A stretch of DNA of 64,000 nt from a virus. The notes below the pieces were generated by a model. The model was not told where the DNA came from, ran no database searches, and saw only the letters and a program-made list of their open reading frames with translations. Positions within the stretch are counted from its first letter, which is position 1, and the number at the start of each line of letters is the position of its first letter. Location of the stretch: IMG/VR virus record IMGVR_UViG_3300029911_000024, positions 2,820-66,819 of that record; one strand, written 5' to 3'. Below are positions 2,578 through 57,828 of this stretch, one piece after another. Made by a program: the position numbers and the translations under genes.

Positions 2578-3167
2578 GCGGCTTTCTTCCTGCGCTGGAT
2601 CGGCGGCGCGAATAACCCATGCTGCACCGCCCGCTCAATTGTCATTGTCCCAAGCCGATACGCACCGGCCAACATCGCATCTGCGGCATGGTCATCGCAG
2701 ACAAGCCAGCGTCGCGACGTGCAGGCCAGAACAACCGCATCTTTCAAGGCTTTGCGGCGCTTTTCCTTGTCCTTGATCTTGCGGTCGACCTTCACGCCGA
2801 ACTCGGCGCGCACCGTTGGCTCATAGACCTCATAGACCGGGATTTTCCCGCTGGCATAGGCGACGGCATGCGCGACCATGAACAGGCCGAACAGCAGCTT
2901 GATCGGATTGATATTTGGCGTCATGCGATCCAGGCCGCTTTTGGTCTTGAAGGCAAATGCACCGACGAACGGCGTGCAGAGCACGACGCCGTCAGGCCGA
3001 TGTTCCTCGATCAGCGCTTTGATGAAATGACCAGCAGCGTGGCCCAGTTCGCCAAGATCGGTGGCGTTTCCCGGCAGCATGGCCGAGCCGGTGATAGGAG
3101 GACTTCCGCCCCGAACCACCGCGTAACCCGTCGTCAGGCCGAGGTCCAGGGCGAGAAGTTTTGTCAT
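2574..3167 (-). CDS. RuvC-like Holliday junction resolvase
   Basis: N-terminal LLALDLGLTTGYA and C-terminal DHAADA acidic motifs of the RNase H fold. Confidence 0.75.
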   Translation of the reverse strand: MTKLLALDLGLTTGYAVVRGGSPPITGSAMLPGNATDLGELGHAAGHFIKALIEEHRPDGVVLCTPFVGAFAFKTKSGLDRMTPNINPIKLLFGLFMVAHAVAYASGKIPVYEVYEPTVRAEFGVKVDRKIKDKEKRRKALKDAVVLACTSRRWLVCDDHAADAMLAGAYRLGTMTIERAVQHGLFAPPIQRRKKAA

Positions 3168-3751
3168 CAGTGAACGGGGGCTTTGTTTTCGTTTTCGATG
3201 GCCGCGAGTGCCGCTTCAGCAGCACTCTGCTTCGGCGCAGGCTGGACGATTTCAGCCTTGGGCGCGTCGTCGGGAATTTCTATTTCGCCCTGGGCGAGAC
3301 ACCACGCGCCGAACGGGGTGTCCTTGCCGAAGGATTGACCGGCAGCGATCAGCCGGTCCATGTCCTCGCGCTCTTTGGCCTCAAACTCGGCGAACTCGTC
3401 GGCCAGTGATTCCTGCGACTTGGCGATGTTGTAGAACATGCGGGCGATCTTGCGCGATGTGCCGAACTTGCTGGCCATTTCGCCATAGACGCCCTTGATG
3501 TCGGACATGAATGTGGCGTTCTTTTCCGCCTTTTCCTCGAATAGCTTATCGAGGCGGCTTTTGAACCCTTCCAGTTCTTTTTTGGTCGGGATTTTGGTGT
3601 TGTGCCCGATGCCGACATTGTCGCCCGTGACGACGCCGCTCACGGCATCCTTTGCGCCTTTGGCCGCTGCGGCCTTTTTCTTCGCTGGCTTTTTTGCCTT
3701 GGATGCTTTCGGGGCAGATTCCGCAGCCGCCGCCTTTTTCTTCGCTGCCAT
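3167..3751 (-). CDS. GapR/DUF2312-like DNA-binding protein with Ala/Lys-rich N-terminal tail
   Basis: GIGHN...ELEGFKSRLDKLFEEK...SDIKGVYGEM resembles DUF2312; GAGGA RBS before ATG 3751. Confidence 0.65.
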   Translation of the reverse strand: MAAKKKAAAAESAPKASKAKKPAKKKAAAAKGAKDAVSGVVTGDNVGIGHNTKIPTKKELEGFKSRLDKLFEEKAEKNATFMSDIKGVYGEMASKFGTSRKIARMFYNIAKSQESLADEFAEFEAKEREDMDRLIAAGQSFGKDTPFGAWCLAQGEIEIPDDAPKAEIVQPAPKQSAAEAALAAIENENKAPVH

Positions 3752-3861: not shown

Positions 3862-5169
3862 ATGGCCGAACACCTCCTGCTGATCGACGCCAGTGGCTTC
3901 GCGTACCGAGCCTATTTCGGCGGTATCAAGTTTCCGCGCTACCGTGCGGACGGCATGCCCACCGGCACCGTGATTGCCTTCCTCGAAATGATCCACAGGC
4001 TGGTGGGAGACGCGGCGAGAGACCCCGTCAGCCACATCGCGGCAGTTTTCGACAACCGGGAAGCGCCGACCTTTCGCCACAAGAAATTCCCAGCCTACAA
4101 GGGCAACCGGACCCAGCGGGAGCCCGAACTGTCGATCCAGCTACCGGTGATGCGGGACGCCGCGCGGGCCCTGGGCGTTACCCCCGTCGAGGCTATCGGC
4201 TACGAGGCCGACGATGTCATGGCAACCCTGGCGCGATGGGGTGTCGATGCTGGGCTGCGGGTCACGATTGTCAGCAGCGATAAGGATATGGGCCAGCTTG
4301 TTGAGGATGACCGGATCGAGATCGTGGACGACCGCAAGGGCATCCGGGTTCTGGCCAAGGACGTCGAGACCAAACTGGGCGTGCCGCCGCACCTCGTCGC
4401 CGACCTGCTGGCGCTGGCGGGCGACACCGCCGACAACATTCCGGGCGCTCCAGGGATCGGCGGCGGGATCGCGGCGAAGCTGCTGCGCAAACTGGGATCG
4501 CTCGATGCCATCCTGGCCGAGGCTGCCAAGAAAAGCGGCTACCGGATGACGGGAGCGGCGAAGCTGTCCATCAACGGGCATCGAAAAGAGATCAAACTTT
4601 ACAGGGAGTTGACAGGGCTCGTCGAAGATATTGACTTAAATGTCAACCTCGATGACCTCGTCGCGGTGCCCTATGTCCCCGCCCACCTCAAGGAATTGCT
4701 GCTGGCGCTGGAAGCCCCCGACGCGCTCCGGCGCATCATGGCGGGCGGCCGGATCGGCGGCACATACGAGGTGGTAGAAAAAATCGACACCGCCGATATT
4801 CTGGTATGGCACGCCAAAGCCCTGGCCGAATATCAGGCCAAGTTGGCCCGGCCGTCGCACAAGATCACTCTGCCCGCGCCGCCCGACCCGCAATGCGGCT
4901 GGTACAAGCGCAAGCTGGTGCAGGACGGTCCCTGGGTTCCGGCCCGCATCTGGCGGGAGCACGCGGGCGACAAGCACGCGCTGCTATGCACGGTCGGCGA
5001 CAAGTCGCACAACCCGGCCGACCAATGGGGACGGCTGCTGTCATATCCGATCAGCGAGACGGACTATCAGGCGATGATGACCCGGCGGTCCTGGGTCGCC
5101 CAGCACGCGCCGCTGGAGCCCGAGGCGAACGAGAACAAACCCGTGAATTATTTGACGCTGCCAGTTTAA
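3862..5169 (+). CDS. Pol I-type 5'-3' exonuclease/flap endonuclease fused to an unknown C-terminal domain
   Basis: LLLIDASGFAYRAYF, FRH..FPAYKGNR, YEADDVMATL, SSDKD, LAGDTADNIPGAPGIG (H3TH); no polymerase domain. Confidence 0.9.
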   Translation: MAEHLLLIDASGFAYRAYFGGIKFPRYRADGMPTGTVIAFLEMIHRLVGDAARDPVSHIAAVFDNREAPTFRHKKFPAYKGNRTQREPELSIQLPVMRDAARALGVTPVEAIGYEADDVMATLARWGVDAGLRVTIVSSDKDMGQLVEDDRIEIVDDRKGIRVLAKDVETKLGVPPHLVADLLALAGDTADNIPGAPGIGGGIAAKLLRKLGSLDAILAEAAKKSGYRMTGAAKLSINGHRKEIKLYRELTGLVEDIDLNVNLDDLVAVPYVPAHLKELLLALEAPDALRRIMAGGRIGGTYEVVEKIDTADILVWHAKALAEYQAKLARPSHKITLPAPPDPQCGWYKRKLVQDGPWVPARIWREHAGDKHALLCTVGDKSHNPADQWGRLLSYPISETDYQAMMTRRSWVAQHAPLEPEANENKPVNYLTLPV

Positions 5170-5247: not shown

Positions 5248-6156
5248 ATGACCGAGACAGCGCCAATCGGCCACAATAGCGGCGAGCCTGACGCGCTCCC
5301 AATCCTGCGCCAAGCGCCTGATCTTGAGGCGCATTTGGCCGTCACTTACGCGCCGCTTCTGGCGCGCACCAAGGAATTGCTGGAGAAGGGCCCGGCCAAG
5401 GCCAAGGTCTATGACGACGAGGCTGACAGCGCCGCCACCGAGTTTCTAATGGCGATTCGTGGTGCGATGGAGGAGGCCAAAAAGAAAAAGGGCGAGGAGT
5501 TGGAGCCTTACGCCACGCTGGAAGAAATCATCAGCGCTTTTTTCACCACCAATGTCTGGGAGCCGCTGAAGGCGCTTGGCGCGAAGGTCAATGATGCCAG
5601 CGGCGACTACAAGATGGGCATGGTGCGCGCCGCCAGAATTACCAGCGATGCCGCCGCCGCTGCTGCCGCCGAGATCAAGCGCAAGGCTGACCAGAAGGTG
5701 CGCGATGATGCCGAGGCGGCCCGGCTGCTGGAGGAAAAGGCCAACAGGGCGCGCAAGCCGGAAAACATCGAAAAGCTGACCGCCGCTGCCGAGGAAGCGA
5801 AAAACACGGCCCAGGTCAGCGTGGCCGCCGCCGCCGCCGTGGCTGTCGATCATGCTGAGGCCGTCAGCGAGGCCGCTACACCGGCCGCAGACCTGAGCCG
5901 GTCGCGCGGCAAGCGCGTCGGTGTCTCGTCCCTGCGCACCGCCGTGAAGCCGCTGGACCTGATCGACCGCAAGGCGCTGGCGACCAGCATCACATTGCTG
6001 GCCCCGTATTTCACCGATGCCTCAATCTTGGCGGCTGCCAGGGCTTATGAGAAGGCGAACAAGGCCACCGTTGGTGAACACCTCGACAATGGCACCCAGC
6101 CCATCGCTGGCATCACCTTCGTCGAGGATTACAGCAACGTCGCCCGCAAAACTTAA
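5248..6156 (+). CDS. Coiled-coil protein of the recombination operon
   Basis: PIGHNS N-terminal motif, long Ala/Glu/Lys helical region, directly upstream of recT. Confidence 0.7.
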   Translation: MTETAPIGHNSGEPDALPILRQAPDLEAHLAVTYAPLLARTKELLEKGPAKAKVYDDEADSAATEFLMAIRGAMEEAKKKKGEELEPYATLEEIISAFFTTNVWEPLKALGAKVNDASGDYKMGMVRAARITSDAAAAAAAEIKRKADQKVRDDAEAARLLEEKANRARKPENIEKLTAAAEEAKNTAQVSVAAAAAVAVDHAEAVSEAATPAADLSRSRGKRVGVSSLRTAVKPLDLIDRKALATSITLLAPYFTDASILAAARAYEKANKATVGEHLDNGTQPIAGITFVEDYSNVARKT

Positions 6157-6174
6157 TCCACAGGAGATTTTTCA

Positions 6175-7356
6175 ATGGCCGATACGACCGTCGACGAACG
6201 CCCGCAGCCGCCGCTGGAAGGCGAGGTCGTCACCGAGACCCAGAAGCCCGGCACGGCCGAGCCGCTGGCCCAGGAAGCCCCGAGCATGAAGGGCAAAGGC
6301 TTGATCGCCTGGGAGACCTTCGAGACCGAAATGAACGCGCGGGCCGACCAGATCGCGTCCATGCTGCCGTCCAACGTCAGCCGCGACCGCTTCCTCAATT
6401 CCATCATCGCTGCGGTGAAACAGAACCCGGACCTTCTGTTTTGCGTGCCTCGTACGCTGTTCACCGCCATCGTCAAAAGCGCCCAGGACGGCCTGATTCC
6501 TGACGGCAGTGAAGGGGTGATCCTTCCCTACAACAACAACGTGGCGAAGCGCGGCGAGCCAGACCGCTGGGAACAGCATGCCCAGTGGAACCCGATGGTG
6601 AAGGGCATCCGCAAGCGGGCGCGTGAGATCGACGGCATCCTGATCGACGCCCAGGTCGTCCACATGCAGGATCATTTCCTTTGGGAGCAGGGCGACGAGC
6701 CCAGGATTGAGCACACCCCAGCCAAGCTGGGAACGCCGCGCGGCGTGATGATCGGTTCATATGCCATTTTCAAGCGCGAGGACGGCACCATCCTGGCCCG
6801 CGAAGTGATGGATGCAGAGGCCGTCACCGCTACCAGCGAGCAGTCCAAAAACAAGAATGGCCTCATGTGGACGAAATTCGCCAGTGAGGGCTGGCGGAAG
6901 GCGGTGATCCGGCGCGGCTCCAAGTCGGTCCCGGCGGTCAGCCCGGCGCTGGCCCAGGTCATCAATCGGGATGACGAGAATTTCGACTTCGGCGAGCCCG
7001 CCCGGTTCATCGAGCATGAGAACAAGGCAACCCCGGCAAAGGCCTCCCCCGGCGGGCACGGCAGCGCCTTCAACCGCAGGCCTGCGGCCCAGGCGGCCAA
7101 AACACGGCCCAGCGCCGCCCAGGACGTCCAGCAGGCCGATTCTGGTCAAGAGGCGCAGGATGCGGTCTTTGAGGACGAGACGCCCATGGAGCGCGGCAAG
7201 CGGCTTCTGGCGCTGTGCCAGACCACGAACGATGTCGCCGATCTGCGGGCCAGCATCGCCGAGGAACTGGCCAAGGACGAGATCATGCTGGCGGCCTGGA
7301 ATGCCGCCTGTGACGGCCGGTCTCAGGCTATGACGGCCGTGGCGGTGCGGAAATGA
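6175..7356 (+). CDS. recT: RecT family single-strand annealing protein
   Basis: LPSNVSRDRF, AVKQNPDLLFC, AQDGLIPDG.EG.ILPY, W.KF.SE..RKAVIRR..K..P. Confidence 0.9.
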   Translation: MADTTVDERPQPPLEGEVVTETQKPGTAEPLAQEAPSMKGKGLIAWETFETEMNARADQIASMLPSNVSRDRFLNSIIAAVKQNPDLLFCVPRTLFTAIVKSAQDGLIPDGSEGVILPYNNNVAKRGEPDRWEQHAQWNPMVKGIRKRAREIDGILIDAQVVHMQDHFLWEQGDEPRIEHTPAKLGTPRGVMIGSYAIFKREDGTILAREVMDAEAVTATSEQSKNKNGLMWTKFASEGWRKAVIRRGSKSVPAVSPALAQVINRDDENFDFGEPARFIEHENKATPAKASPGGHGSAFNRRPAAQAAKTRPSAAQDVQQADSGQEAQDAVFEDETPMERGKRLLALCQTTNDVADLRASIAEELAKDEIMLAAWNAACDGRSQAMTAVAVRK

Positions 7357-32901: not shown

Positions 32902-33879
32902 TTAGTGGGTGGCGTCCTTGAACAGATAGCCGAGATCGGAGCCGGAGATCACCATGGCGAAGGCAAATTCGCCTCGGATCACGTCCTGCTTTTTCTTCTC
33001 GTCGTAATACTGGTCGATGCGGACGCCCGCGTCGTTCATGCCGGTCAGCTTCGACCAGCAGAAGATCGTGGCGGCAGTCGGCGACATCAGCGTCGGCGCA
33101 CCTTCCTTGTAGGTCAGCAGCGCGTTGCTCGGCACCGCAAAGTTCTGCGTCTTGGAGGCCGCACCTTCGTTGGTGGACGAATAGGACGCCTTGGAGACGT
33201 GATATTCATCAAGCTCGAAGAACTTGGCGATGATCGCGGCGGTGATGGATTCCGCGGAAGTGTACTTGATGCGGTCCTTGATGATCGGGTGGCGCTTGAG
33301 CGCCTGATGCACCGAATAGCCCACGGTGAACACGTTGCCCTCAAAGCCGGTGGTTTTCACCATCAGGTTCTTGGCGTCGTCCATGTTCTTTTCCGGGTCC
33401 GACGCATAGTCGTCCCAGGAGGTGAAGTCGGTGCCACCACCGGCGGTGCCATTCTTGGTAGTCGCCCAGCCTGAGGTCGACAGCATGAAGTTGGTCGCGA
33501 ACAGGCGCTCGCGGCGGATCATCATGCGCTGGGTGACAAGCTGCGCGGCGGCCTTGTCCAGCGGCAGGCCAGGATCGGTGTTGGCCTGGGTCATCTGCGA
33601 CAGCGGCACGGCGGTCCACCAGGGGGTGGCGTTGTAGTTCTGCTTGGACAGCGTGAAACCGGACTGGGGGGCTTCCTCGTTTTCCGCGCGGACCTTCACC
33701 GCGTCGTCGCGCATCCAGTCGTCCTTGTTGAACACAAAGTAGAGATCGGACTTGTGCTCAACCGGGAAGGTCGGGATGGCGTTGCCGCCGATGAAGTTCT
33801 GGTTGTCCTGAATATAGGCCAACGAGAAATCGGTCAGCGCCGCATCGGCGTGGACGTCGGAACTGGTGGGCTGTGCCAT
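32902..33879 (-). CDS. Major capsid protein (lambda gpE-like)
   Basis: H.DAALTDFSLAY, WDDYASDP, ALKRHP.IKDRIKYT, DLGYLFKDA. Confidence 0.9.
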   Translation of the reverse strand: MAQPTSSDVHADAALTDFSLAYIQDNQNFIGGNAIPTFPVEHKSDLYFVFNKDDWMRDDAVKVRAENEEAPQSGFTLSKQNYNATPWWTAVPLSQMTQANTDPGLPLDKAAAQLVTQRMMIRRERLFATNFMLSTSGWATTKNGTAGGGTDFTSWDDYASDPEKNMDDAKNLMVKTTGFEGNVFTVGYSVHQALKRHPIIKDRIKYTSAESITAAIIAKFFELDEYHVSKASYSSTNEGAASKTQNFAVPSNALLTYKEGAPTLMSPTAATIFCWSKLTGMNDAGVRIDQYYDEKKKQDVIRGEFAFAMVISGSDLGYLFKDATH

Positions 33880-44107: not shown

Positions 44108-44326
44108 ATGGCTGGCAAAATTAACTACGCCTATTTGGATGAAAGCCCGGTCGTTTTTGACAACGACAAGGCTTTCGAGTGGGTGCAGGGACAAACCACG
44201 GCAGGGCGCTGGGTGCCGCTGCACATGGCGGATGCGCGCTCCAAGGCGCGGCTGCTGACGGCGTCCGAGTTCAATGACTACGCGGCGCGCTCCGGCGCGA
44301 GCGGGTGGACAACCCTTTTCCACTGA
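44108..44326 (+). CDS. Small protein convergent with and overlapping the RelA/SpoT-like module (candidate immunity protein)
   Basis: GAGGAGGT RBS, own promoter, 49-nt 3' overlap. Confidence 0.65.
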   Translation: MAGKINYAYLDESPVVFDNDKAFEWVQGQTTAGRWVPLHMADARSKARLLTASEFNDYAARSGASGWTTLFH

Positions 44327-46200
44327 TCTGGCAGGCTGTCGCGCGCTGCGCCGTACAGCTTGATCTGCGCCTGGGCGAGCGCGTCCTTGCCAGGATCGCT
44401 ATCCGGCAAAGACCGCCACTGCTTGTAAAGCGTATGGCCACCGCCGCCTGATTCACTCTTGGCGTTGATAAGCTCTGGCGGCGCGAGCAGCACTTCCCCG
44501 ATCTGGCCATTCTTGAACTGGACGTTCACCGCCCGGTCAAAATACCCAACGTCCGTCGTCTTGTAGCCCTCGTCGGTGGCGGGGAAATGCTCGGCCAGCA
44601 TCTTGGCGACCTTGTCGGCCTGCTCCGGGGTGTCGACCGCGAAGGTGCCGCGCACGATGTCGGTCACGCCAGCCGGTTCGCGCCCGGCCGCCATCTTGGC
44701 CAGGGCAGCGTGGAAATCCTTCTCCAGCACGCGCGGCAGCTTCTTGACGCCGGGGCTACGCCACTGCGCGCCCGTCGCGGCCGCGATTTTATCCCCAACA
44801 TTGTCGAGCGTCGCCTTGTTGGCTTCCGCGCCAGCATAGACCTGCTCGATGGTTTTGAGCGGGCTGGCCTTGATCCAGCCAGCCTTGACATCCCGCGCAT
44901 CGTGCGGGCCCACCGCCTTGGTGCCTGGGCTGTCACCACCGCTCCAGCGGCCGTCATCGTCGCGCGGCTGATCGGGATCGTATTTCGCGAAGGCCTTGGC
45001 GATCATCTTGCGCAGGCCTTTTTCCTGGGCCCAGTTCTCGTTGATCCCGGCATGGACTTCCGGCCCGAACACCAGCGGGAAGCTTGGCGGCTCGATGGCG
45101 CGCACGTCCTTGCCCTGGGTGTCATAGGACAGGGTGATGTGGGTGAGATATTTGGGCCAGTCGTGCGTCGCGCCAGCCGCCATTGCCTCGGCGTGCCGCG
45201 CCTGGAGCGCAGGGCTTTGGAAATGAAGCACCACGGCACCCTTGTCGCCAAGGGCTGACAGATGCCGGTGATCGCCCACCGCCATCACGGTGTCGCTGCG
45301 CGGCTCCAGATCGACCGGCTTGCGGCTGTAGACCTGGGTGACATGCATTTCGTGGGGAGGGACGAGGTTGGGGATGCCAGCCGCTTTCGCCCAGGCGTGC
45401 AGCCGGTCGGCGTTGGCCAGCGGCCGGTGGACGTACAGGCTGTCAGGTGCAGCCAGCTTGGTGATGGTTGAGGCGGCCCGCAACGCATCGCCGAACGAGA
45501 TCGCCTTCCCAGCGGGCACGCCGCGCCCGACAATGACCTCGTGATATTTCCCGTTTTTGGTGACGTTGACAGCCACAACTTGGGAAACAGGAATATCCCG
45601 CTGCACTATGTTGTCGCCGAACTGGGCAGCGAACTCCCTGGTGGTCGCCCAGTTCTGGGTGGCCTTGGTGCGCTGCAACCCCACGGCGCGGAACAACGGA
45701 ATCTTGTCGCCATACTGGGCGCGTAGCACGGTGCGGGTGGCCGCGAAATTGTCGTAAAACTGATTTGGTGTCACCAGCTTGCTCTTGCCATCCATGATGT
45801 CGTCGATGGCAGTGTTGCTGTTTTTGGCGGTGCCATAGGCCGCATCGCTGATCGCCATATAGATCGGCTTGGTGCGCAACAGATCGGTGTGCGCGGCGAC
45901 GACAACGGCTGGTGACAGCGTGCTCATTGTTTCTGCGGCTGTGGCGATCTTTTCCGGTGTGGTCGGCTTTGAAAGATCGAAGCGCAGCGACCCAGCCTGC
46001 CGCACATGTTCCTGAAATGCTAAGGCATCTGCGCCAGTCAACGTCCCCTTTTGGCCCAGGGTACGAATGGCATCCACCTCGGCCTTGAGGCGCTCTCGCT
46101 TCTCGTCACGCGATCCACCCTCGATGCTGGAAAAGCGGCCGAGATCGTCGTGGTTTTCGTTGTATTTTAGGAACCGCTTCTGCGCTTCAAGCCGGGAACC
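44278..46200 (-). CDS. Polyvalent protein, distal part: ART-like + Acb1-like 2H phosphodiesterase + RelA/SpoT-like nucleotidyltransferase
   Basis: LFRAVG..NWATTREFAAQF..YHEVIV; SLYVHR..MHVTQVYSR..HITLSYD..LVFGPE; GVKK..R..EK..DIVRG..GYFD..VNV..GEV..GHTLY; frame stays open up to the TAG at 46203-46201. Confidence 0.8.
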   Translation of the reverse strand, partial: GSRLEAQKRFLKYNENHDDLGRFSSIEGGSRDEKRERLKAEVDAIRTLGQKGTLTGADALAFQEHVRQAGSLRFDLSKPTTPEKIATAAETMSTLSPAVVVAAHTDLLRTKPIYMAISDAAYGTAKNSNTAIDDIMDGKSKLVTPNQFYDNFAATRTVLRAQYGDKIPLFRAVGLQRTKATQNWATTREFAAQFGDNIVQRDIPVSQVVAVNVTKNGKYHEVIVGRGVPAGKAISFGDALRAASTITKLAAPDSLYVHRPLANADRLHAWAKAAGIPNLVPPHEMHVTQVYSRKPVDLEPRSDTVMAVGDHRHLSALGDKGAVVLHFQSPALQARHAEAMAAGATHDWPKYLTHITLSYDTQGKDVRAIEPPSFPLVFGPEVHAGINENWAQEKGLRKMIAKAFAKYDPDQPRDDDGRWSGGDSPGTKAVGPHDARDVKAGWIKASPLKTIEQVYAGAEANKATLDNVGDKIAAATGAQWRSPGVKKLPRVLEKDFHAALAKMAAGREPAGVTDIVRGTFAVDTPEQADKVAKMLAEHFPATDEGYKTTDVGYFDRAVNVQFKNGQIGEVLLAPPELINAKSESGGGGHTLYKQWRSLPDSDPGKDALAQAQIKLYGAARDSLPDQWKRVVHPLAPERAA

Positions 46201-49749: not shown

Positions 49750-49924
49750 ATGACAGGCGGCCGCTCAGTCGCACCATCAGAAAAACGAAAAAAGCGAACA
49801 GCGCAGTGCCAACGACAAAACCGATGATAGCGGCCGCGAGCAGGTCCATGCCGAGCCTACTCAAGGTGAAGGCAATCGCCATCACCACCGCAGCCCAAAG
49901 GACGATGAATAGCGCCTCGATCAC
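49748..49924 (-). CDS. Small two-TM membrane protein
   Basis: IEALFIVLWAAVVMAIAF...LLAAAIIGFVVGTALFAFFVFL; GTGA overlap. Confidence 0.55.
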   Translation of the reverse strand: MIEALFIVLWAAVVMAIAFTLSRLGMDLLAAAIIGFVVGTALFAFFVFLMVRLSGRLS

Positions 49925-50316
49925 TGCTTCTGTTCCGGTTCGGCGGCCGCGACATAGCCGGGCCGCAGATGCGGCGGCAGGGCGGCGGTCTCGTCGGCAA
50001 GAAGCTGCGCATTGGCGACCAGCTTTTCCTTGTGTGTCTCCTGCGCGGCATAGCGCTCGTCGCGCTGGCGCTCGCACCATTCGCCCAGGCACTCGAAGTC
50101 GCAAAAGTGGTGTTGCATGATGACGTCGTGCGCGTCGTGGCGCGTGACGTCGATCTTTCCCAGCGTCGGATGATCCGTGTGGTCGATCACCTCGGTGCCC
50201 GGCCGGATCGGCACCCGCGTGCCCTGCACCATCAGATGAAAGCCGCGCCCGTCGCCCTGGCTGATGTCCTTGCCGCAGTCCGGCGCGTCGCATGTGATGA
50301 CCTGATTCCGTGCCAT
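49921..50316 (-). CDS. Zinc-binding hypothetical protein
   Basis: TCDAPDCGK...HFCDFECL. Confidence 0.65.
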   Translation of the reverse strand: MARNQVITCDAPDCGKDISQGDGRGFHLMVQGTRVPIRPGTEVIDHTDHPTLGKIDVTRHDAHDVIMQHHFCDFECLGEWCERQRDERYAAQETHKEKLVANAQLLADETAALPPHLRPGYVAAAEPEQKQ

Positions 50317-50334
50317 TGGCTTTCCCTCGATGAT

Positions 50335-50848
50335 GGGTGGCGGCGCTGGTGAACTTCCACCCAGCCAGCGCCGCATCAGCCGGTTCTCAGCAAAGCCTCA
50401 CGACCGCTCCCCAGTTTTACAGCGCTCAACCGTCCAAAGTCATGCGCCGCCGACGCGGGACAATCTGTCCTGATTTTGTTTCGGGAGCAAGTGGCGGCCG
50501 TGAGCCTACCGGCCATCATGTTCGTCAGCCAGCAGAGCCTTTGCGTAGGTCAGCGCTCCGCTTTCGCTTTCGATGACCCTCAGCACGCAACGCCTCCTGC
50601 TGCTCAGTCGCCTCTTGTCCTGATGGTCCAGCCAACGGCATGAAATTCAACGAGAGGCGCACTAAGTGCCTACAGCTACCGGTTCCTTCTCAGCCGGGTC
50701 TTTCGCTGTCCCTAAAAGGTGCTGGCTGCCTCGCGAGCCTATCCAGACCCCTCTCAAGTATTCTGCTCTTTTCGGACGTGGGTGCTCGACCATCTGCACC
50801 TCAACGGCTTGCGCCGCACCTGTTTCAGTTTCCTAGGGCCTGAGGTCT
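50335..50848 (-). ncRNA. Candidate large structured ncRNA (ROOL/GOLLD-like class)
   Basis: About 510 nt without a credible ORF; nested helices and many GNRA loops; directly downstream of tmRNA. Confidence 0.6.
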
Positions 50849-50865
50849 AAATCGGCGACACGTCA

Positions 50866-51216
50866 GAAAAAAACAGTGGCCGGTATTCTGTTGCCCGGAA
50901 CCGGCCGAACCGCGCCTTCCGCATTAAGCGGCGAGGCGGACTTCTTCGTTGTCGTTGACCTTTACGGTCCTGCTCACCTTGGCTTGCGCCGTTTCGATCC
51001 GGTTCACGCCGTCGATCCTGTTTCGCCCCCAGCAACAGCACACCGACCAGACCTTCAACCGTTGCCGCCCGGTGCCGACCCGAACCGCTTGGGGAATCGA
51101 ACCCCGCCCTTTGTCTGTGCCCGGCCAACCGTGCCCGGGGGTGTGCTGGTGGTGGAGGCGGCGGGCACCGCCCCCGCGTCCGGTCAAGTCGTAATCGAAA
51201 ACATCAGCTTGCAGTG
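50866..51216 (-). ncRNA. ssrA: Two-piece (circularly permuted) tmRNA, alphaproteobacterial type
   Basis: Acceptor piece ends GGACGCGGGGGCGGTGCCCGCCGCCTCCACCA (3' end 51150); coding piece starts GGGGGCGAAACAGGATCGAC (51030); G3-U Ala determinant; tag VNDNEEVRLAA* at 50959-50924; terminal hairpin plus T7. Confidence 0.92.
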
Positions 51217-51222
51217 ATGGAG

Positions 51223-51250
51223 AGATAGGACGGAATGGCCGAATCGTCAA
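51223..51250 (-). promoter_or_regulatory. tmRNA promoter
   Basis: TTGACG-N16-CTATCT with GGCC-N5-GTCC in the spacer. Confidence 0.65.
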
Positions 51251-51499
51251 CTGGTGTTAATTTTCTCGCCCCTACTGGATGGTCGAAAATCCTATCATGT
51301 AACTTTTTTCGATCTCGTTCGTGGTGGATTGTCAAAGACTTGCGCAGACATGCACAAGTCGACATGCGAATTATGCCGGAACTTATGCGTCTATCCGAGC
51401 GCCACCGGGTTGTGCCTGTATCCCGCTGCTGCCCGCCGATCATCGCCCCCCAGCCCCGCATCGACGAGGGAAAGCCAGCAGCGGGAGGTCTCACACCAC

Positions 51500-52003: not shown

Positions 52004-52243
52004 TCATTCGCCGCTTTCGTTGCCATAATCTTTGCAGCACGGGCCCAGCCAGACACCGCCATGGATGCGACGCCAACCTTCCGCTGCCGCCAGCCTGCGC
52101 ATGATGATGTAATCCTCGCCAACGGTGTGAAACCCGCCAGGGAACAGCGCACCGGATTTGGCGCAGCCGTCGCAGTCCAGCGTCATCGACAGCAGCATCA
52201 GCGGGCCGTCAGGATTCGGGATGCTGGTGAGGCGCTGGACCAT
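52004..52243 (-). CDS. Small zinc-finger-like protein
   Basis: CDGC...AEGW......LGPCC; TGATG overlap. Confidence 0.55.
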   Translation of the reverse strand: MVQRLTSIPNPDGPLMLLSMTLDCDGCAKSGALFPGGFHTVGEDYIIMRRLAAAEGWRRIHGGVWLGPCCKDYGNESGE

Positions 52244-52800
52244 CAATAGTCGATCACGGGCTGGCGGTGCGCTTTGCCATACTGCTGGTCGAGGCGCAGT
52301 GCTGCGGCGCGGTGCTGCTCGCGCCCCCATTGATGCGCCATCCAGCGGCCGAACTTCTGGACATAGGCGAAATACCGATAGGCGTTCATCGCCCCTCTGC
52401 CCTGGTTGCATAGATGACAGGCGATAATCTGGTTAGACCAGAAACAGCGGCCGCCAGCAGCGCGCGGCACCACCTCGTCTATGGTCGCCCGATTGTGCGC
52501 CCCATCTTTGATGTGATCGAACACACGCTGGCCGCAATAACCGCATCGGTGGTTCTGGGCCTCCAGCAGCGCCGAACGCTTGTCATAGTCGCGCGCCTCG
52601 GTGGATTTCAGCGGGAAATCATCCTGGCCGTGATGCCGAAACGCTTTTCGGCGCGGCTGCTGGTAAAGCCAGTCGGCCTCGTCGAACTTGCTGACGAACT
52701 GCTGGTGGATCGGGACGCGGGGACGCGGATCGACACCAAATTCAGCCGACAGCTTTGCCGCCGCCTCGTCTGACAACAGCTTTGCATATCGCACGCCCAT
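52243..52800 (-). CDS. HNH endonuclease
   Basis: QNHRCGYCG...ATIDEVVPRAAGG...N...ACHLCNQGRG; the usual DH is DE here. Confidence 0.75.
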   Translation of the reverse strand: MGVRYAKLLSDEAAAKLSAEFGVDPRPRVPIHQQFVSKFDEADWLYQQPRRKAFRHHGQDDFPLKSTEARDYDKRSALLEAQNHRCGYCGQRVFDHIKDGAHNRATIDEVVPRAAGGRCFWSNQIIACHLCNQGRGAMNAYRYFAYVQKFGRWMAHQWGREQHRAAALRLDQQYGKAHRQPVIDY

Positions 52801-52994
52801 CAGCACCGCCCGCGATAGATCGGGCCATGGTGCTCGCGCGCCAGCTTTTGGGAATGGGCGCGCATCGCCTGGGCGTCGGCGATCATCTGCTGCTGCGCAG
52901 CTTGGTTGCCGCCATGGCGCGCGCCGCGCATCAGGTCGTGGGCTTGGTCGAGAAGCTGGAGCGCGAAGGCCAGTTTCGGTGGATGCTGCATCAC
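52800..52994 (-). CDS. Hypothetical protein
   Basis: Coupled small ORF. Confidence 0.45.
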   Translation of the reverse strand: MMQHPPKLAFALQLLDQAHDLMRGARHGGNQAAQQQMIADAQAMRAHSQKLAREHHGPIYRGRC

Positions 52995-53176
52995 ATTTCC
53001 CCCAAATCGCGCCGCTCGGTATGAACTTGGCCGATGATGATAAAATGCTGCATGATGTCGTCGGAAGCCGTTGTCGCATTGGCTTGCGTGAGGGTGGCTT
53101 CCCAAAGCTGCGGTTCATGGATGTGCGGCAGCAACAGTGCCGGAGCCGCACTCGCCATCAAATCCCGCTTCGACAT
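52991..53176 (-). CDS. Hypothetical protein
   Basis: Small ORF after MuF. Confidence 0.45.
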   Translation of the reverse strand: MSKRDLMASAAPALLLPHIHEPQLWEATLTQANATTASDDIMQHFIIIGQVHTERRDLGEM

Positions 53177-53184
53177 GCACCGGC

Positions 53185-54246
53185 CTATCCGTCCGCGTCC
53201 CCAGTGTCGATATAGGTGATGCAACGGCACAGCGGATGCAAGGGGCCATACATGGCTGGGCCGTATGGGGTGTCGAAATATCCGTCCAGCGGCACGCCGT
53301 CCTCGTTCATGTCGGGGACTTGTTCACAGTATTCGCACAGCCGGTCATTCGGCGTCACCAGCCAGAACCGGCGCAGCGCGGTGCGGTTGAGCAAGCCCTG
53401 GTCGGCCGCCTGACCCCAGGCCATGTTCTGGGCGGCGTTGGAGGCGCGCATGGTCTCGGTGCGCGCGATCATCTGGGCCCGGTTGAGAATCGCCCGGTTG
53501 CGATACCGGTTGACCATCGTGGCGATCTGCTCGTCAGACAGCGTCCGGTCAGCGCCAGCGCCCAGCGCGCGCTCCAGCGTCGGATCGTGGCGGCGGTCCC
53601 GCATCGCCCTGGTCAGCGCTGCCCGGTCCTTGGTGCGCAGCAGGTTCTCGAAATTGGTCACGGCCTGGGCTTGGTCGTCGGTCAGACCGATGCTTTCGCG
53701 AATCTGCCGGGCCTGCTCATAGGGATGGCCGCCCATGGCAAAGGCGTTCTGGATGACCGTGCGGATGCCGTCGCGTGTTTGCTGGCTGATGTCGCGGATC
53801 AAGCCGAAATCGTAATTCCGCAGGAACGTCGCGGTGTTGGGGTTGGTCAGGTTAAACGACATGCCGACATGCACGCCCATCGTCTTGGCTGGGGTCGCCC
53901 GGCCCGCCGCGATGAAGGCATCCTCCAGCGGCTTGGTCAGGCCCGGCTTGAGGCTTTCGGACAATCCCTCCTCAACGCCGAGCGCCCGCATGGCGGCGTT
54001 GACGTCGCCCCGGGCGATGGCGTCCCGCAGTTCGGCCTCTTTGGCGGCATTGCGCACCCGGCGCAGCGCTTCAAGGAACGCGGCCTTGGTCGCTGGAGCG
54101 GCATTGTCGGCGATCTCCAGCAGCCATTCGTGGTCTGGGGTGTCAGGGCTGTCCGCCTTGGCCAGCCCGCCGCGTGCCCATGTCTGGCGGCGTGGACGGC
54201 TTCCCAGCGTCCTGGCGTGCTTCCGGCAGGCGTGGGGCAGGATCAC
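53185..54246 (-). CDS. Head morphogenesis/minor head protein (SPP1 gp7/MuF family)
   Basis: RAQMIARTETMRASN, W....NDRLCEYC, PLHPLCRC. Confidence 0.9.
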   Translation of the reverse strand: MILPHACRKHARTLGSRPRRQTWARGGLAKADSPDTPDHEWLLEIADNAAPATKAAFLEALRRVRNAAKEAELRDAIARGDVNAAMRALGVEEGLSESLKPGLTKPLEDAFIAAGRATPAKTMGVHVGMSFNLTNPNTATFLRNYDFGLIRDISQQTRDGIRTVIQNAFAMGGHPYEQARQIRESIGLTDDQAQAVTNFENLLRTKDRAALTRAMRDRRHDPTLERALGAGADRTLSDEQIATMVNRYRNRAILNRAQMIARTETMRASNAAQNMAWGQAADQGLLNRTALRRFWLVTPNDRLCEYCEQVPDMNEDGVPLDGYFDTPYGPAMYGPLHPLCRCITYIDTGDADG

Positions 54247-55706
54247 AGGCCCTTGCGCCTCCGCTTGCCCAACGTGCCGCCAGCGGGCTGGCCTGCGGCT
54301 CCAGCCGCAGGTTTGGCACCGGGCGTCTTGCCGGGTGGCGGCTGGGTCTTGGCCTTAATCTGATCTTCCGCGTTTTGCTGCTCCAGTTCGGCCGCGTCGC
54401 TGACAGCCGTTGGATTGTCGGCGGTGGGCAGACCAGCCTCCTCGCGCAGATGGGCCTCCAGGGTGTCGTCGGGCACCAGCGCGCCAGCGGCCGCAATGTC
54501 CTGAATGTACTGGCCGAGTTGCAGCAGGTCGGACTTGGCGATGTCGCCGTGGGTGACGTTGACGTTGCCCTTCATGCTGTTGAGCAGCAACAGGTCGTTG
54601 GCAGCTTTCTGGACCTCGGACGCGATGATGTCGAGGAAGTCGATCACCGCGTTGTTGAAGTTCTCGGATTTGCTCTGCGACTGGGTGCCGTGGCCGCCCA
54701 TCCCGCCCTTGCTGGACTGCTGGCCCAGGGTGATGAAATCCGCCAGCATCGAGGCCGCCATGCCGTGGTCATAGCGGTTGATGATCTCGGTGGTGTGGAA
54801 CTGGCGCGAGCCGCCGGTCGACAGAAGGTCGACGCTGAAGATCAGGTTCTTGTTGGCGTCATAGATCGCAGGGATGACGAGACCGGCCTGCTCGTTCTGG
54901 TTGATGAGGTTGACCATGTCCTTGGCCGCCTGGAGCGCGGTTTTGTCGTCGTCGCTGGCGTCCGACTTGAACCACGCTGGCGGGCACGAAACCACAGGCA
55001 GGCCAGCCAGATCGCGCGACACGCCGATGGCCTCGATCTGCTGCACCCGCTTCTTGAGGAAATAATAATTATACATCGACCGCATGATGCTGCGGCCTTC
55101 CGGGTTTTGCTTGTAGGGCGTGGTGCGGAAATGCAGGCACTTGGACAGCGGCACGTTGAGCAGGGGGCCGCCGGTCGGCAATAGCTGCACCATCGACAGC
55201 GCGTTGCCCTGCGGATCGAAAACCCAGTGCAGCAGCGTTTCCTGGGCACGCCCGGCGAACTTGCGCCAGCCGATCAGGCCATCGGTGTACTGGCTGCGCT
55301 GCGACGGGTCAGGATTGGTCGGACCGCGCCGGTATTTGTAGACCTTCTCGTAAACACCAAAGCCGTATTGCAGGAACGACAGCGCGTCGGCCATGAAGTC
55401 CGCCCAACTGTGATCCATGTCGGAAAAGCATGACTGGACAAAATCGGCTGCGTTGGCGTCGTCGGTGTTCTTTTCGTCCTGGGGCTCGACGCGAAACGGC
55501 ACCGGGCGCAGCAGCATTTCGGTATTGGTGAAGATGGCGGCGATGATGGGGTCGTTGTCGCGCATTTCGCGCAACGTCAGCATGCCACGGCGGCCTATCA
55601 GGTCGCGCAGCCACTCCTCGCGCACATAGCCCGAGAACTGGCGCAAGCCAGACGCGCCAGATTCCTGCGTAATCAGATAGCCGCCCTCTGTTTTCGTCCG
55701 CGCCAT
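54243..55706 (-). CDS. Portal protein (DUF935/Mu gp29-like)
   Basis: EMRDND, FL.YGF...EKVYK.R, NPEGRSIMR, EAIGVSRDLAGLPV. Confidence 0.9.
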   Translation of the reverse strand: MARTKTEGGYLITQESGASGLRQFSGYVREEWLRDLIGRRGMLTLREMRDNDPIIAAIFTNTEMLLRPVPFRVEPQDEKNTDDANAADFVQSCFSDMDHSWADFMADALSFLQYGFGVYEKVYKYRRGPTNPDPSQRSQYTDGLIGWRKFAGRAQETLLHWVFDPQGNALSMVQLLPTGGPLLNVPLSKCLHFRTTPYKQNPEGRSIMRSMYNYYFLKKRVQQIEAIGVSRDLAGLPVVSCPPAWFKSDASDDDKTALQAAKDMVNLINQNEQAGLVIPAIYDANKNLIFSVDLLSTGGSRQFHTTEIINRYDHGMAASMLADFITLGQQSSKGGMGGHGTQSQSKSENFNNAVIDFLDIIASEVQKAANDLLLLNSMKGNVNVTHGDIAKSDLLQLGQYIQDIAAAGALVPDDTLEAHLREEAGLPTADNPTAVSDAAELEQQNAEDQIKAKTQPPPGKTPGAKPAAGAAGQPAGGTLGKRRRKGL

Positions 55707-55742: not shown

Positions 55743-57476
55743 TCAGCGGGCCGTGACGACAAACGGGTTCTCCTGCTGAAATTCCTTGTTGATGCCCAGG
55801 TTGAGCCCGGTGCCAGGATCGACCTGGGGCTCCAGATGGGACAGCACATAGCCGTCGGCGTCGTCCGGGCTGGGCACGCGGCGCGCAGCAAGCTGCTGCT
55901 TGGTCTCGATCACGATCTTGCCGGTGTTGTTGCGGAACCACTTTGGCGTCGAAAGCTGCATCATCAGCGTGCCGTCGTCCGGCAGCAGCGCGCACTCCTC
56001 CAGCTTTTGCTCGATCCCGCCTTCCTGCTTGGTCAGCCACAGGTAATGCAGATGGCTGCGCTGGATCGCGGCGCGCGCCAGCCACCAGATTTCCGCCTTG
56101 AGATTGCCGAACTTCTCGACGCTGGTGGTCCCGTCGGGCCATACGCGGTTGCTGGGCGGCACGCCAGTGTTGATCGGATAGACGGCCTTGATCTTGGGAT
56201 ACTGGGTGCGGTCGACCTTGGTGAGGGTGGACAGCACGCCAGCGCCGACGCCGGGCACGTCGAAATTGAGGAATTGCGTCCCCGCTTCCTTCATGCAGTC
56301 CAGCATCCAATAGGCCGTGTCGGTGGTGTCGGCTTCCTGGCGGCGCTGGATCGGCAAACAGATCGGGCCGAACCGGTGGACGCAGACCGATTTCGCCTTG
56401 CCCGCGCCCACGTCGCCCCCGGTTATGCCGACCTTGCTGGGTGTGAACATGACGCCGAACTGCTTCATCAGGTCGACAGCGGACTGCACCCATTTGCCTG
56501 GGATCGCCATGCCCTCGGTCGCGGCGGTGTAGCTGATCTCGTATTCCGCGTCCCAGGTGGACGGGTCCGACATGCTGGCTTTTTTCTTGGCCGCCCATTC
56601 CGGTGTCTTGCGCGGATCGGCCGAGTAATGCAGCCGGAAGATCGAGCCGATGATATTGGCCAGCGCAGCGCGCTTGCGAGCAAAGAAATTTGCCAGCCCG
56701 CCGCTCTCCGGATTGGGCGTCGAGACCCAGCCGATGCAATCGGTATTGCCGCTGATCGCCGCCTCGACCTTCTGGGGATGCGCCAGGAACGCGGCCTCGT
56801 CGACCACATACATGGTCGAGCGGCCACCGCGCCCAGGGTTTTCGCCGGTCTCGCCCGTCACCACCGCGCCAGTGACCGGGTTGGTAAACTGCATGATGTT
56901 GTCGTGTTTTCGCTCGTTGAAGCCGTCCGGCAGCATCCACGGCGGCAGGCGGCGATAGATCACCCGCAGTTTCTCGAAAATGCTGTCCGGATTGCCCTTG
57001 CTGTCGACGTTCAATTCGTCGCGCGAGCAGAATGTGGCCTTGAATCCCGGGGTGAACAGCCAGCGCCACGTCACATAGGCGCAGATCAGGTACGTCGCGC
57101 CCTGGTCGCGGGACTTCTCCAGCAGCCACGGCTCGCCCTTGCTGACCTTGTCGTGCAACCAAAGAATGAATTTGCGCTGTTCCGGCCACAGCTTGAACCG
57201 GATGTATGGCGTCTTGTTTTCGGCGATCAGGCGCGGGTCGAATGTCCAGGCCCAGTTATCAAACCAATATAGGACGTCCTTGGCGCACTTGGCCTTTTCC
57301 TCGGCATAGGACTTAGCGCGGTTTCCGACCCTGGCCTTAAACTCGCGCTCTGTGACCTTGCGCTGCGCTTCGGCTTCGATCCGGTCGATATGAGTTTGCA
57401 GCAGGCGGTCGAGATAGTCGGCAGCCTTACGAGAATTGACCACTCGCGATAGCAGCTTTGGCAAGTCGGAGGGCAT
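55743..57476 (-). CDS. terL: Terminase large subunit
   Basis: EKSRDQGAT (Walker A), YVVDEAA (Walker B), GGDVG, SPDDAD nuclease motif; start uncertain. Confidence 0.92.
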   Translation of the reverse strand: MPSDLPKLLSRVVNSRKAADYLDRLLQTHIDRIEAEAQRKVTEREFKARVGNRAKSYAEEKAKCAKDVLYWFDNWAWTFDPRLIAENKTPYIRFKLWPEQRKFILWLHDKVSKGEPWLLEKSRDQGATYLICAYVTWRWLFTPGFKATFCSRDELNVDSKGNPDSIFEKLRVIYRRLPPWMLPDGFNERKHDNIMQFTNPVTGAVVTGETGENPGRGGRSTMYVVDEAAFLAHPQKVEAAISGNTDCIGWVSTPNPESGGLANFFARKRAALANIIGSIFRLHYSADPRKTPEWAAKKKASMSDPSTWDAEYEISYTAATEGMAIPGKWVQSAVDLMKQFGVMFTPSKVGITGGDVGAGKAKSVCVHRFGPICLPIQRRQEADTTDTAYWMLDCMKEAGTQFLNFDVPGVGAGVLSTLTKVDRTQYPKIKAVYPINTGVPPSNRVWPDGTTSVEKFGNLKAEIWWLARAAIQRSHLHYLWLTKQEGGIEQKLEECALLPDDGTLMMQLSTPKWFRNNTGKIVIETKQQLAARRVPSPDDADGYVLSHLEPQVDPGTGLNLGINKEFQQENPFVVTAR

Positions 57477-57828
57477 CGACACCGCCCTTGGCAAGGGCCT
57501 CGGCGAGGCCTTCGAGCGCCGCCGTGTCGAGGCCGATTTCAACACGAGGCCCATAGCCTTCATCCCTCATTTTTCTGTCGGCATACCAGCGCACGGTCGC
57601 CATGTCTTTCGCCGCGAGGGCATCTGCGATGGCGCTCCGAGCGTTCGCCTTCATGTCCTCACCGATGCTGACCAGCACGGCCTGGAGTTCCGGGCTGCGG
57701 TCGACTCGCTGCTGGACCGCCTGCCGGGACGTCTTGAGTTCATCGGCCGCGCGCGGGATCAGGCCGTGATGCTTGCGCAGCGCGGCCTCAATCATCGCGT
57801 TCGTGAACCGAGTGCCCCCCTTGGCCAT
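57427..57828 (-). CDS. Terminase small subunit
   Basis: N-terminal HTH (AADELKTSRQAVQQR); immediately upstream of terL. Confidence 0.75.
   Translation of the reverse strand: MAKGGTRFTNAMIEAALRKHHGLIPRAADELKTSRQAVQQRVDRSPELQAVLVSIGEDMKANARSAIADALAAKDMATVRWYADRKMRDEGYGPRVEIGLDTAALEGLAEALAKGGVDALRLAKAAIASGQFS

Follow-up and report, generated by a model that had tools for sequence, protein, structure and literature searches.

A gap of about 520 nucleotides (nt) that is free of genes lies just downstream of a transfer-messenger RNA (tmRNA) gene on the minus strand of a 66,819-bp virus record with direct terminal repeats, of which 64 kb, referred to hereafter as the window, constitutes the whole stretch of DNA analysed. 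This spacer (positions 50335-50848) had been described in a first-pass annotation as a single highly structured RNA of about 510 nt, either ROOL-like or representing a new class of large RNAs. The spacer is a composite and not one giant RNA, and has one demonstrably functional part, a conserved structured RNA motif at 50646-50769 on the minus strand, which was delimited with a covariance model (hereafter R1) and by covariation. There is little doubt that the motif represents a genuine conserved RNA structure, of whose family the window contains a member. The reading as a ROOL-like giant RNA thus shrinks to a motif of about 124 nt accompanied by an unexplained spacer.

The genes upstream of the spacer are encoded on the same strand and comprise the large terminase (55743-57563), a Mu-type portal (54243-55706), a MuF-like protein (53185-54246), an HNH protein (52243-53151) and, between the HNH protein and the tmRNA, an open reading frame (ORF) of 196 amino acids (aa). 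The tmRNA gene (50875-51254, minus strand) is of the two-piece, circularly permuted alpha type, with scores of 85.3 bits for the Rfam family alpha_tmRNA (gathering score 50) and 72.6 bits for tmRNA_permuted (gathering score 47); it adjoins the spacer directly upstream, as the first-pass annotation had stated, and is located outside the conserved motif. ARAGORN, which called no genes in the window, missed it. Its tag reading frame finishes ...AACGACAACGAAGAAGUCCGCCUCGCCGCUUAA, giving the peptide ANDNEEVRLAA. The tmRNA ends in a feature read from the sequence at 50867-50906 (minus strand), in which a hairpin GGCCGGU...ACCGGCC (50906-50878) is followed by seven U residues (50873-50867); it looks like an intrinsic terminator that would part the tmRNA from the spacer, and is not called by the terminator rule applied here because its loop exceeds 8 nt. 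No sigma-70-like promoter was found in 50200-51400. The spacer itself is divided on the minus strand into a 5' part of about 80 nt (50770-50848), the motif, and a 3' part of 311 nt (50335-50645) with three predicted hairpin domains. Near its end lies a perfect 10-bp GC hairpin, GCGGCGCUGG/CCAGCGCCGC (50340-50374, minus strand), which finishes 23 nt ahead of the next start codon and has no U run after it. The next gene downstream is a Cys-rich ORF of 131 aa (MARNQVITCDAPDCGK...; 49921-50316, minus strand) without any Pfam or PHROG family, beyond which small ORFs of no known family continue. The DNA of the record is present in peat metagenome runs and in two lake-water metagenome runs.

A conserved RNA motif and its family

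In the family, a helix P1 of 6-7 base pairs (bp) closes a multi-way junction from which emerge the conserved arm P2/P2b, with a CGCRA pentaloop at its tip, the small hairpin P3, a hairpin P4 of variable length and a hairpin P5 of 4 bp; the AU-rich flank GAAUACCC sits 5' of the motif and a short U-rich tract 6-8 nt 3' of it. Members are about 75-135 nt long. The window's copy, at 124 nt, has all six helices on the minus strand: P1 pairs 50753-50748 with 50657-50652, P2 pairs 50746-50743 with 50725-50722, P2b pairs 50738-50736 with 50730-50728 around the loop CGCGA (50735-50731), the small hairpin P3 pairs 50719-50717 with 50713-50711, the base of P4, which carries a large insert, pairs 50709-50705 with 50676-50672, and P5 pairs 50669-50666 with 50662-50659. 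Its 5' flank reads AGAAUAC, its P4 insert is among the largest of the family, and its own genome contains a single copy of the stretch. At four related loci (L088, L091, L093 and L075) a minimal motif was observed that consists of P1, P2/P2b and P5 only, without P3 and P4, with a length of 75-77 nt at the first three; because such minimal versions occur, the essential core may be a three-way junction.

The nested helices proposed in the first-pass annotation can be compared with this fold. ACAGC/GCUGU agrees with it and forms the base of P4, while three others conflict with it: in CCCUAGGA/UUUUAGGG, CCUUUUAGG is the local hairpin P3 and not a partner of CCCUAGGA; in AGGUGC/GCACCU, GCACC joins P2 to P3; and in CGCCUCU/AGAGGCG, GCCUCUC is the 3' strand of P1 and pairs with GAGAGG upstream. 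The rest of the proposed helices lie where the family alignment has no relatives to compare.

Relatives of the spacer were not detected by blastn in distant mode with 50300-50900 against GenBank phages, nor by protein-anchored searches of viral contigs with the 131-aa ORF and the portal protein. The lead came from comparing contigs of four runs with the stretch. In a lake-water run, contigs of other organisms match no more of it than 50708-50746 and 50519-50638; where the contig matching 50708-50746 runs on beyond the similarity, it carries, after a shorter hairpin, a near-copy of the window's next conserved string. The 17-base pattern GTAGGCACTNAGTGCGCC retrieved no viral, 35 metagenome and 22 genome loci, of which one in 57 is a true relative and the other 56 are chance matches. 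This relative (L048) is a prophage in an alphaproteobacterial metagenome-assembled genome, and it ties the window to the family independently of R1 (nhmmer, E 3.6e-8). Patterns derived from the comparison of the two copies yielded 3, 62 and 5 IMG/VR loci, and R1, a model of 110 positions and 25 pairs built from 31 sequences, gave 64 matches in 63 of 66 sources. On the 64-kb window R1 has one strong match, at 50646-50769 on the minus strand (75.4 bits, E 2e-18, model positions 1-110), a score that is partly circular, the window's sequence being among the 31 used to build the model.

An independent pattern scan anchored on P5 recovered 20 new loci, all of which hold the motif. The motif is thus found in 80 IMG/VR contigs besides the window's record, one GenBank record and two genomes, these members having been gathered by fixed patterns, as opposed to scanning entire collections with the model. 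Several of the IMG/VR records, to judge by the form of their identifiers, may come from isolate genomes. Among cultured phages the motif is very rare: by blastn, MT835534.1 is the only true match among 50,697 GenBank phage records. The two genomes with a true motif, out of 401, are alphaproteobacterial (G005 and G357); the pattern GGNNNGGCTCGCGAGGCNNNC occurs in nine of the 401, about as often as the reversed control, with two true members. Within the class of G005, a search of 151 genomes with R1 detected the motif in G005 only, at a low sensitivity, as 25 candidates were scored per genome.

Every helix is backed by compensatory base changes. In a MAFFT alignment of 31 compact copies, 89.8% of the paired cells can pair as against 78.4% after shuffling, both sides have changed in 12 of the 25 pairs, and the covariation score is 0.292 as against 0.110, a value reached in none of 500 shuffles; when the partners are slid by 1-3 columns, only 37-53% of the cells pair. 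The alignment of 64 sequences made with R1 gave 93.2% against 80.4% paired, changes on both sides in 15 of 25 pairs and again none of 500 shuffles. The pattern used to collect these two sets fixed most of P2/P2b, and the P5-anchored set of 26 sequences therefore serves as the control; in it 94.6% of the cells are paired against 85.2%, both sides have changed in 17 of 25 pairs, P2 and P2b included, and none of 500 shuffles reaches the observed value. The compensated changes in P2/P2b of this set are U-A to C-G in four sequences and, in one sequence each, C-G to G-C, G-C to A-U, G-C to C-G (in P2b) and U-G to C-G. Alignments made with a model lean towards the structure of that model, a bias from which the MAFFT alignment and a permutation test of P1 are free: strands of P1 score 6.19 with their own partners and 4.43 with permuted ones, and none of 300 permutations reaches the former value. 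The core measured from P1 to P1 varies from 55 to 114 nt and its length modulo 3 is distributed as 31/21/9; since the insertions and deletions (indels) thus ignore codon phase, the motif is not coding.

Three further candidates were tried and rejected. The pentaloop in the P5-anchored set is either CGCGA or CGCAA, and a kissing dimer through the palindrome CUCGCGAG was discarded, as 14 of the 24 full-length rows of that set carry CUCGCAAG. A small ORF read in the copy of L048 was also set aside, the window's copy being in a different frame with a P4 that is 33 nt longer and non-homologous. A tRNA-like reading was abandoned, since ARAGORN finds no tRNA at the motif, in the window or at 60 loci.

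Irregularities were also noticed at individual related loci. Two copies of the motif occur in each of two contigs, at 3089-3189 and 2696-2795 on the minus strand in L098 and at 4011-4108 and 4476-4572 on the minus strand in L142; the second copy in L098 has a nearly identical 5' half and a degenerate 3' half, as if it had been duplicated and were decaying. In L048, inverted repeats (CTCACGCGGAGACGCGGAG... and its complement) at about 960-1000 and 460-490 on the minus strand flank a segment of about 540 nt that contains a small ORF and the motif, an arrangement suggestive of a long hairpin or of a small mobile insertion.

The spacer outside the motif

All 16 strings listed in the first-pass annotation are present on the minus strand of 50335-50848 at the places implied, and the stretch is indeed free of ORFs, with 8/6/9 stop codons per frame on the minus strand and 3/6/2 on the plus strand; the longest ORFs touching it are of 79 and 67 aa (plus) and 45-47 aa (minus). 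The description of the whole as highly structured did not survive comparison with dinucleotide shuffles, the minimum free energy of the 514 nt being -201.8 kcal/mol as against -198.5 +/- 6.4 (z -0.51), with 29 of 100 shuffles equally or more stable. Enrichment in complementary words is mild: seven perfect complementary 8-mers are observed against 2.2 +/- 2.2 (18 of 300 shuffles reach seven) and 51 complementary 6-mers against 34.6 +/- 7.5, and the single complementary 10-mer pair is matched in 28 of 300 shuffles. The 3' 311 nt taken alone fold more stably (z -2.36), one of 100 shuffles being as stable.

The suggestion of a ROOL-like RNA found no support in the ROOL model RF03087 (574 positions), which has no match at E<=10 in the 66.8-kb record, though it has none in the control genomes either, so that this search lacks a positive control with a known ROOL. 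The comparison with Rfam proposed for ROOL, introns and RNase P returned no family above its gathering score in the spacer; with all 4227 models of Rfam 15, the only matches in 50100-51000 at E<=10 are the tmRNA and a weak CcsR1-like match on the plus strand. Group I and group II introns, RNase P RNA, riboswitches and small ribozymes from the same library have no match in the window or in L048, L059-L061 and L106, and group-II-D1D4-1, searched directly, gave none. GOLLD, whose model we take to be in the Rfam library, is not listed in any of the all-family scans.

As for the parts on either side of the motif, nhmmer with the 5' part and with the 3' part found no match at E<=1 in 121 loci, and the pattern GCAGCAGGAGGCGTTGCGTGCTG from the 3' part, a 23-nt string kept in the lake-water contig, has no locus in IMG/VR. 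The lake-water contig itself differs from 50519-50638 by 15 substitutions and four single-base indels (about 85% identity). There is thus a hint of something non-coding in the 3' part, far short of a large RNA. The proposal of a new RNA class stands to the extent that a structured RNA without any Rfam family lies inside the stretch, and fails as to size, relatives covering 124 of the 514 nt; likewise, the covariation looked for is present in every helix of 50646-50769, while the other approximately 390 nt have no relatives among the 121 loci.

Genomic context and probable role

The neighbouring genes in the related loci, predicted with a crude gene caller based on GC content at third codon positions (GC3), are mostly co-directional with the motif; this holds for the closest upstream neighbour at 48 of 62 loci and for the closest downstream one at 54 of 60. 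Upstream genes (n=90) include 27 major head genes (20 of phrog_371, five of phrog_1005 and two of phrog_29) and 20 matches to head proteases (16 of phrog_133 and four of phrog_328), while downstream genes (n=88) include 20 head-tail adaptors of the Mu gp36 type (phrog_195), six Neck1 and about ten portal genes. The usual order is protease, major head gene, an optional small gp35-like gene (FluMu_N), motif and gp36; other boundaries occupied by the motif are those from terminase to portal and from the tmRNA to small genes. ARAGORN calls tRNAs in four of 60 related loci, none at the motif, and nhmmer with the window's tmRNA found no match in 121 loci; a tRNA-like neighbour is therefore peculiar to this phage and not a trait of the family.

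Spacing to the adjacent genes is close. In 27 of 64 matches the end of the upstream ORF falls in the interval from 20 nt ahead of the match to 10 nt within it; the motif typically starts within about 10 nt of the upstream stop codon, which often lies inside or just ahead of the conserved GAAUA(A/C)CC flank. The end of the motif is about 20-40 nt ahead of the next start codon in roughly a quarter to a third of the copies, and a Shine-Dalgarno (SD)-like sequence with a start codon follows P1 within 63 nt in 34 of 81 copies, clustering at 19-27 nt. In the U-rich tract, at +6 to +8 after P1, the frequency of T is 0.41-0.54 against a background of 0.16, and at least four T in 6 nt within +20 are observed in 14 of 60 copies as against 4.3 +/- 2.0 at random places.

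The motif can be placed among several known systems. The small conserved RNA Mu-gpT-DE of Mu-like prophages (RF03012), named for its position downstream of the major head gene gpT, resembles it in location, as the motif mostly occupies the same operon segment, from the major head or gp35-like gene to gp36; the two differ in that RF03012 has 53 positions (length and accession from Rfam), whereas the motif's model has 110 positions, 25 pairs and six helices. RF03012 has no match above its cut-off in four motif-bearing records, a single weak match (11.1 bits) lying elsewhere in the record, and none at E<=10 on L106 6780-6980 or in 50100-51000 of the window. The motif is at most a positional analogue of Mu-gpT-DE and not of the same family. 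In phage Mu itself (NC_000929), the gap between T and gp35 has a bidirectional terminator-like hairpin, AAAAGGCGG...CCGCCUUUU (6056-6123), and gp35 and gp36 overlap; Rfam at E<=1 finds neither Mu-gpT-DE nor any other family in 5900-6700 of Mu, apart from one weak unrelated match. Hairpins of this kind after major capsid genes share with the motif the place in the late operon and the presumed uncoupling of the abundant capsid protein from minor genes, but they are simple and have an adjacent U run, whereas the motif is branched and conserved in sequence, has its U tract 5-6 nt away and occurs at other boundaries as well.

ROOL and GOLLD are non-coding RNAs (ncRNAs) associated with phages and prophages and often located near tRNA genes (PMC5737381). 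The window's spacer is like them in adjoining a tmRNA gene; it differs in that ROOL has 574 positions against a conserved part of 124 nt, and in that the motif family has no link to tRNA genes. Mining of the intergenic regions of IMG/VR 3.0 in 2023 reportedly produced 8,495 novel covarying candidates of 29-151 nt ("DNAVirus_X"; PMC10690425), among which the motif may already be listed without description. The hallmark string GGCUCGCGAGGC / GGCTCGCGAGGC is in no RNA paper found by a literature search, and the texts of PMC10690425, PMC5737381 and the preprint 10.64898/2026.09.22.753630, supplements apart, do not contain this motif. The motif is absent from Rfam 15. A fair description is that of a well-supported, functionally uncharacterised phage RNA motif that is a positional analogue of late-operon elements and a member of none; the present analysis contributes the anatomy, the context and a working model of the motif and may not be its first sighting (PMC10690425).

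The fixed orientation, the placement in late operons, the spacing to stop and start codons and the lack of any sign of a switch suggest an intercistronic element that folds constitutively and acts in cis. Action in cis on the late mRNA is considered probable; the statement as a whole, inclusive of a role at gene boundaries, is favoured with some caution; and any specific mechanism of boundary marking, processing or stability is tentative and rather doubtful. In this model the motif would be transcribed in the direction of its neighbours as a part of the phage's late mRNA, and once folded would serve as "punctuation" between cistrons, probably recognised by a host or phage factor. It would thereby mark a boundary in the polycistronic late transcript and affect RNA processing, decay or read-through into the next cistron, with the result that the genes of low-copy products downstream (head-tail adaptor, neck, portal) would be set relative to the abundant major head protein; in the window it may play this part at the junction of the tmRNA gene with the downstream block of small genes. 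With one transcript, late operons have to supply capsid subunits by the hundred and connector subunits by the dozen, and to our knowledge the control of this ratio has been worked out in just a few model phages. A covarying branched RNA at such boundaries in about 80 uncultivated phages is thus a testable candidate for ratio control. A bolder version, which is unlikely, makes the motif a new class of functional RNA: a punctuation ribozyme that cleaves itself or guides a nuclease, or else a site bound by a dedicated factor of phage or host. It would cut or gate the late mRNA at gene boundaries and set the stoichiometry of capsid to connector in many alphaproteobacterial Mu-like and other phages; if so, this phage would have recruited the motif to part its tmRNA from the downstream genes.

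Several observations weigh against a constitutively folded intercistronic element, or against the window's copy as a typical example of it. The U tract lies 5 nt off P1, unlike that of a canonical intrinsic terminator. An outer helix P0 (GAAA/UUUC) was rejected, its own partners doing no better than permuted ones (420 of 500), and no alternative pairing of the P1 strands with the flanks, whether as a switch or as an anti-SD, was detectable (198, 90 and 149 of 300 permutations reach the observed values); there is hence no positive sign of a switch or of a terminator stem. The near-invariance of P2/P2b in the first two alignments is a product of the search pattern and no sign of constraint. A same-strand ORF with coding-like GC3 runs across the motif in 10 of 64 matches, so that it is not established as always intergenic, and all three frames are interrupted by stops in just 3 of 61 cores. 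Of 22 sequencing runs listed for the window's DNA, eight contain at least half of the sampled words and none is an RNA run. The window's copy has two non-standard pairs (the outermost pair of P1 and G31-A43 of P2b), and its score ranks 51st of 64, among the lower full-length matches. Thermodynamic folding of its core alone misses the family fold (z +1.04). Its position is also atypical, 17 kb from the major head gene (32902-33879), after the tmRNA terminator and 329 nt before the next start codon; in place of the family's usual late head operon, it has the tmRNA upstream and the 131-aa ORF of no known family downstream.

Among the other explanations, two differ from a short cis-acting element in their very premise. 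One takes the whole of about 510 nt as a large multi-domain ncRNA, ROOL/GOLLD-like or new, with the motif as its core and perhaps co-transcribed with the tmRNA. The lack of ORFs on both strands, the stability of the 3' 311 nt beyond 99 of 100 shuffles, the excess of complementary 6-mers and the single-base indels of the lake-water match, which suit non-coding better than coding sequence, all speak for it, as does a pair of substitutions (50574/50552) read by the authors as compensatory in a predicted helix. It is nevertheless very improbable in view of the unremarkable folding energy of the entire stretch, the absence of any match to ROOL or another Rfam family, and the seven-U terminator-like site between the stretch and the tmRNA. 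The flanks, moreover, have no relatives in the 121 loci where the core has them, the 23-nt string of the lake-water contig is missing from the IMG/VR pattern scan, and the other core copies, about 80, have different flanks, many of them in spacers too short for an RNA of this size. The other premise, that of a DNA-level site for protein binding or packaging, or of a short coding exon, with the RNA structure incidental, is largely refuted because of the covariation and is regarded as extremely improbable. The long near-invariant stretch of P2/P2b, the proximity of packaging and head genes and the scarcity of stops in the core would accord with it; compensatory changes in every helix, upheld by the controls with slid partners and shuffles, indels that are not multiples of three and the fixed orientation relative to genes would not, and the invariance comes largely from the search pattern and breaks, with compensation, in the P5-anchored set.

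The remaining three explanations accept a folded element in the late mRNA and differ in what it does. A riboswitch-type aptamer, in which the junction binds a metabolite or an infection signal and controls the downstream late gene, is suggested by the multi-helix junction with its conserved joining nucleotides and covarying stems, by the frequent position 19-27 nt ahead of an SD sequence and start codon, and by the minimal three-helix versions (L088, L091, L093), as known from some riboswitch classes. It is held to be improbable, as no expression platform is detectable (the P1 strands have no alternative partner and no hairpin abuts the U tract), the neighbours are structural and not metabolic or transport genes, many copies are far from the next start codon and no Rfam riboswitch matches. 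A similarly low probability is given to a self-cleaving ribozyme, or a substrate of RNase P or RNase E, that cuts the late mRNA at the gene boundary. The intercistronic position right after stop codons would suit such a cut, as would the conserved AU-rich, single-stranded GAAUAC that directly precedes a stable helix in genomes rich in GC, AU-rich single strands beside a stem being typical RNase E sites; small ribozymes are common in phages, and the 7-bp P1 stacked on the 4-bp P5 resembles, in the authors' reading, an acceptor/T-arm minihelix. This likeness is loose, with a P5 loop of only 3 nt; there is no match to an Rfam 15 ribozyme, and ARAGORN finds nothing tRNA-like at the motif, in the window or at the loci. 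An action on RNA polymerase, either as an attenuator that partially terminates transcription behind the major head gene or as a processive antitermination signal comparable to put RNA, is quite improbable. The GC-rich P1 followed by a U-rich tract above background, the correspondence in place with the terminator-like hairpin after gene T of phage Mu, and the location of the window's copy within a long same-strand gene array that needs read-through are in keeping with it. The gap of 5-6 nt between P1 and the U tract and the large branched structure closed by P1 are unlike intrinsic terminators, the terminator rule (U run 0-2 nt after the stem) gives no minus-strand site in 50200-51400, and the window's motif comes after the tmRNA terminator, the wrong order for a put-like element.

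Other features of the locus

The intervening segment of the tmRNA exceeds the Rfam consensus by about 90 nt, with the insert located around 51034-51125. In two runs, contigs from other organisms lack 115-119 nt of the tmRNA, which suggests that shorter versions exist elsewhere. The string CAGAAUAC is common to the loop of the tmRNA 3' hairpin (50884-50891) and the 5' flank of the motif (50757-50764), both on the minus strand; it is frequent in the 5' flank across the family and near the alpha-tmRNA consensus, and at 8 nt may be due to chance.

On the plus strand, the weak CcsR1-like match at 50304-50379 has two hairpins with C/U-rich loops and scores 19.5 bits against a cut-off of 65.3; it is followed at 50456-50482 by a terminator-like hairpin with a T run. 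Together these could represent a small antisense RNA that covers the next ORF's ribosome binding site, or a chance similarity. Further downstream, an ORF of 599 aa (44278-46077, minus strand) contains an Acb1 (anti-CBASS) domain at residues 213-351 (PF23474, E 1.4e-37), which points to a counter-defence gene fused to other sequence.

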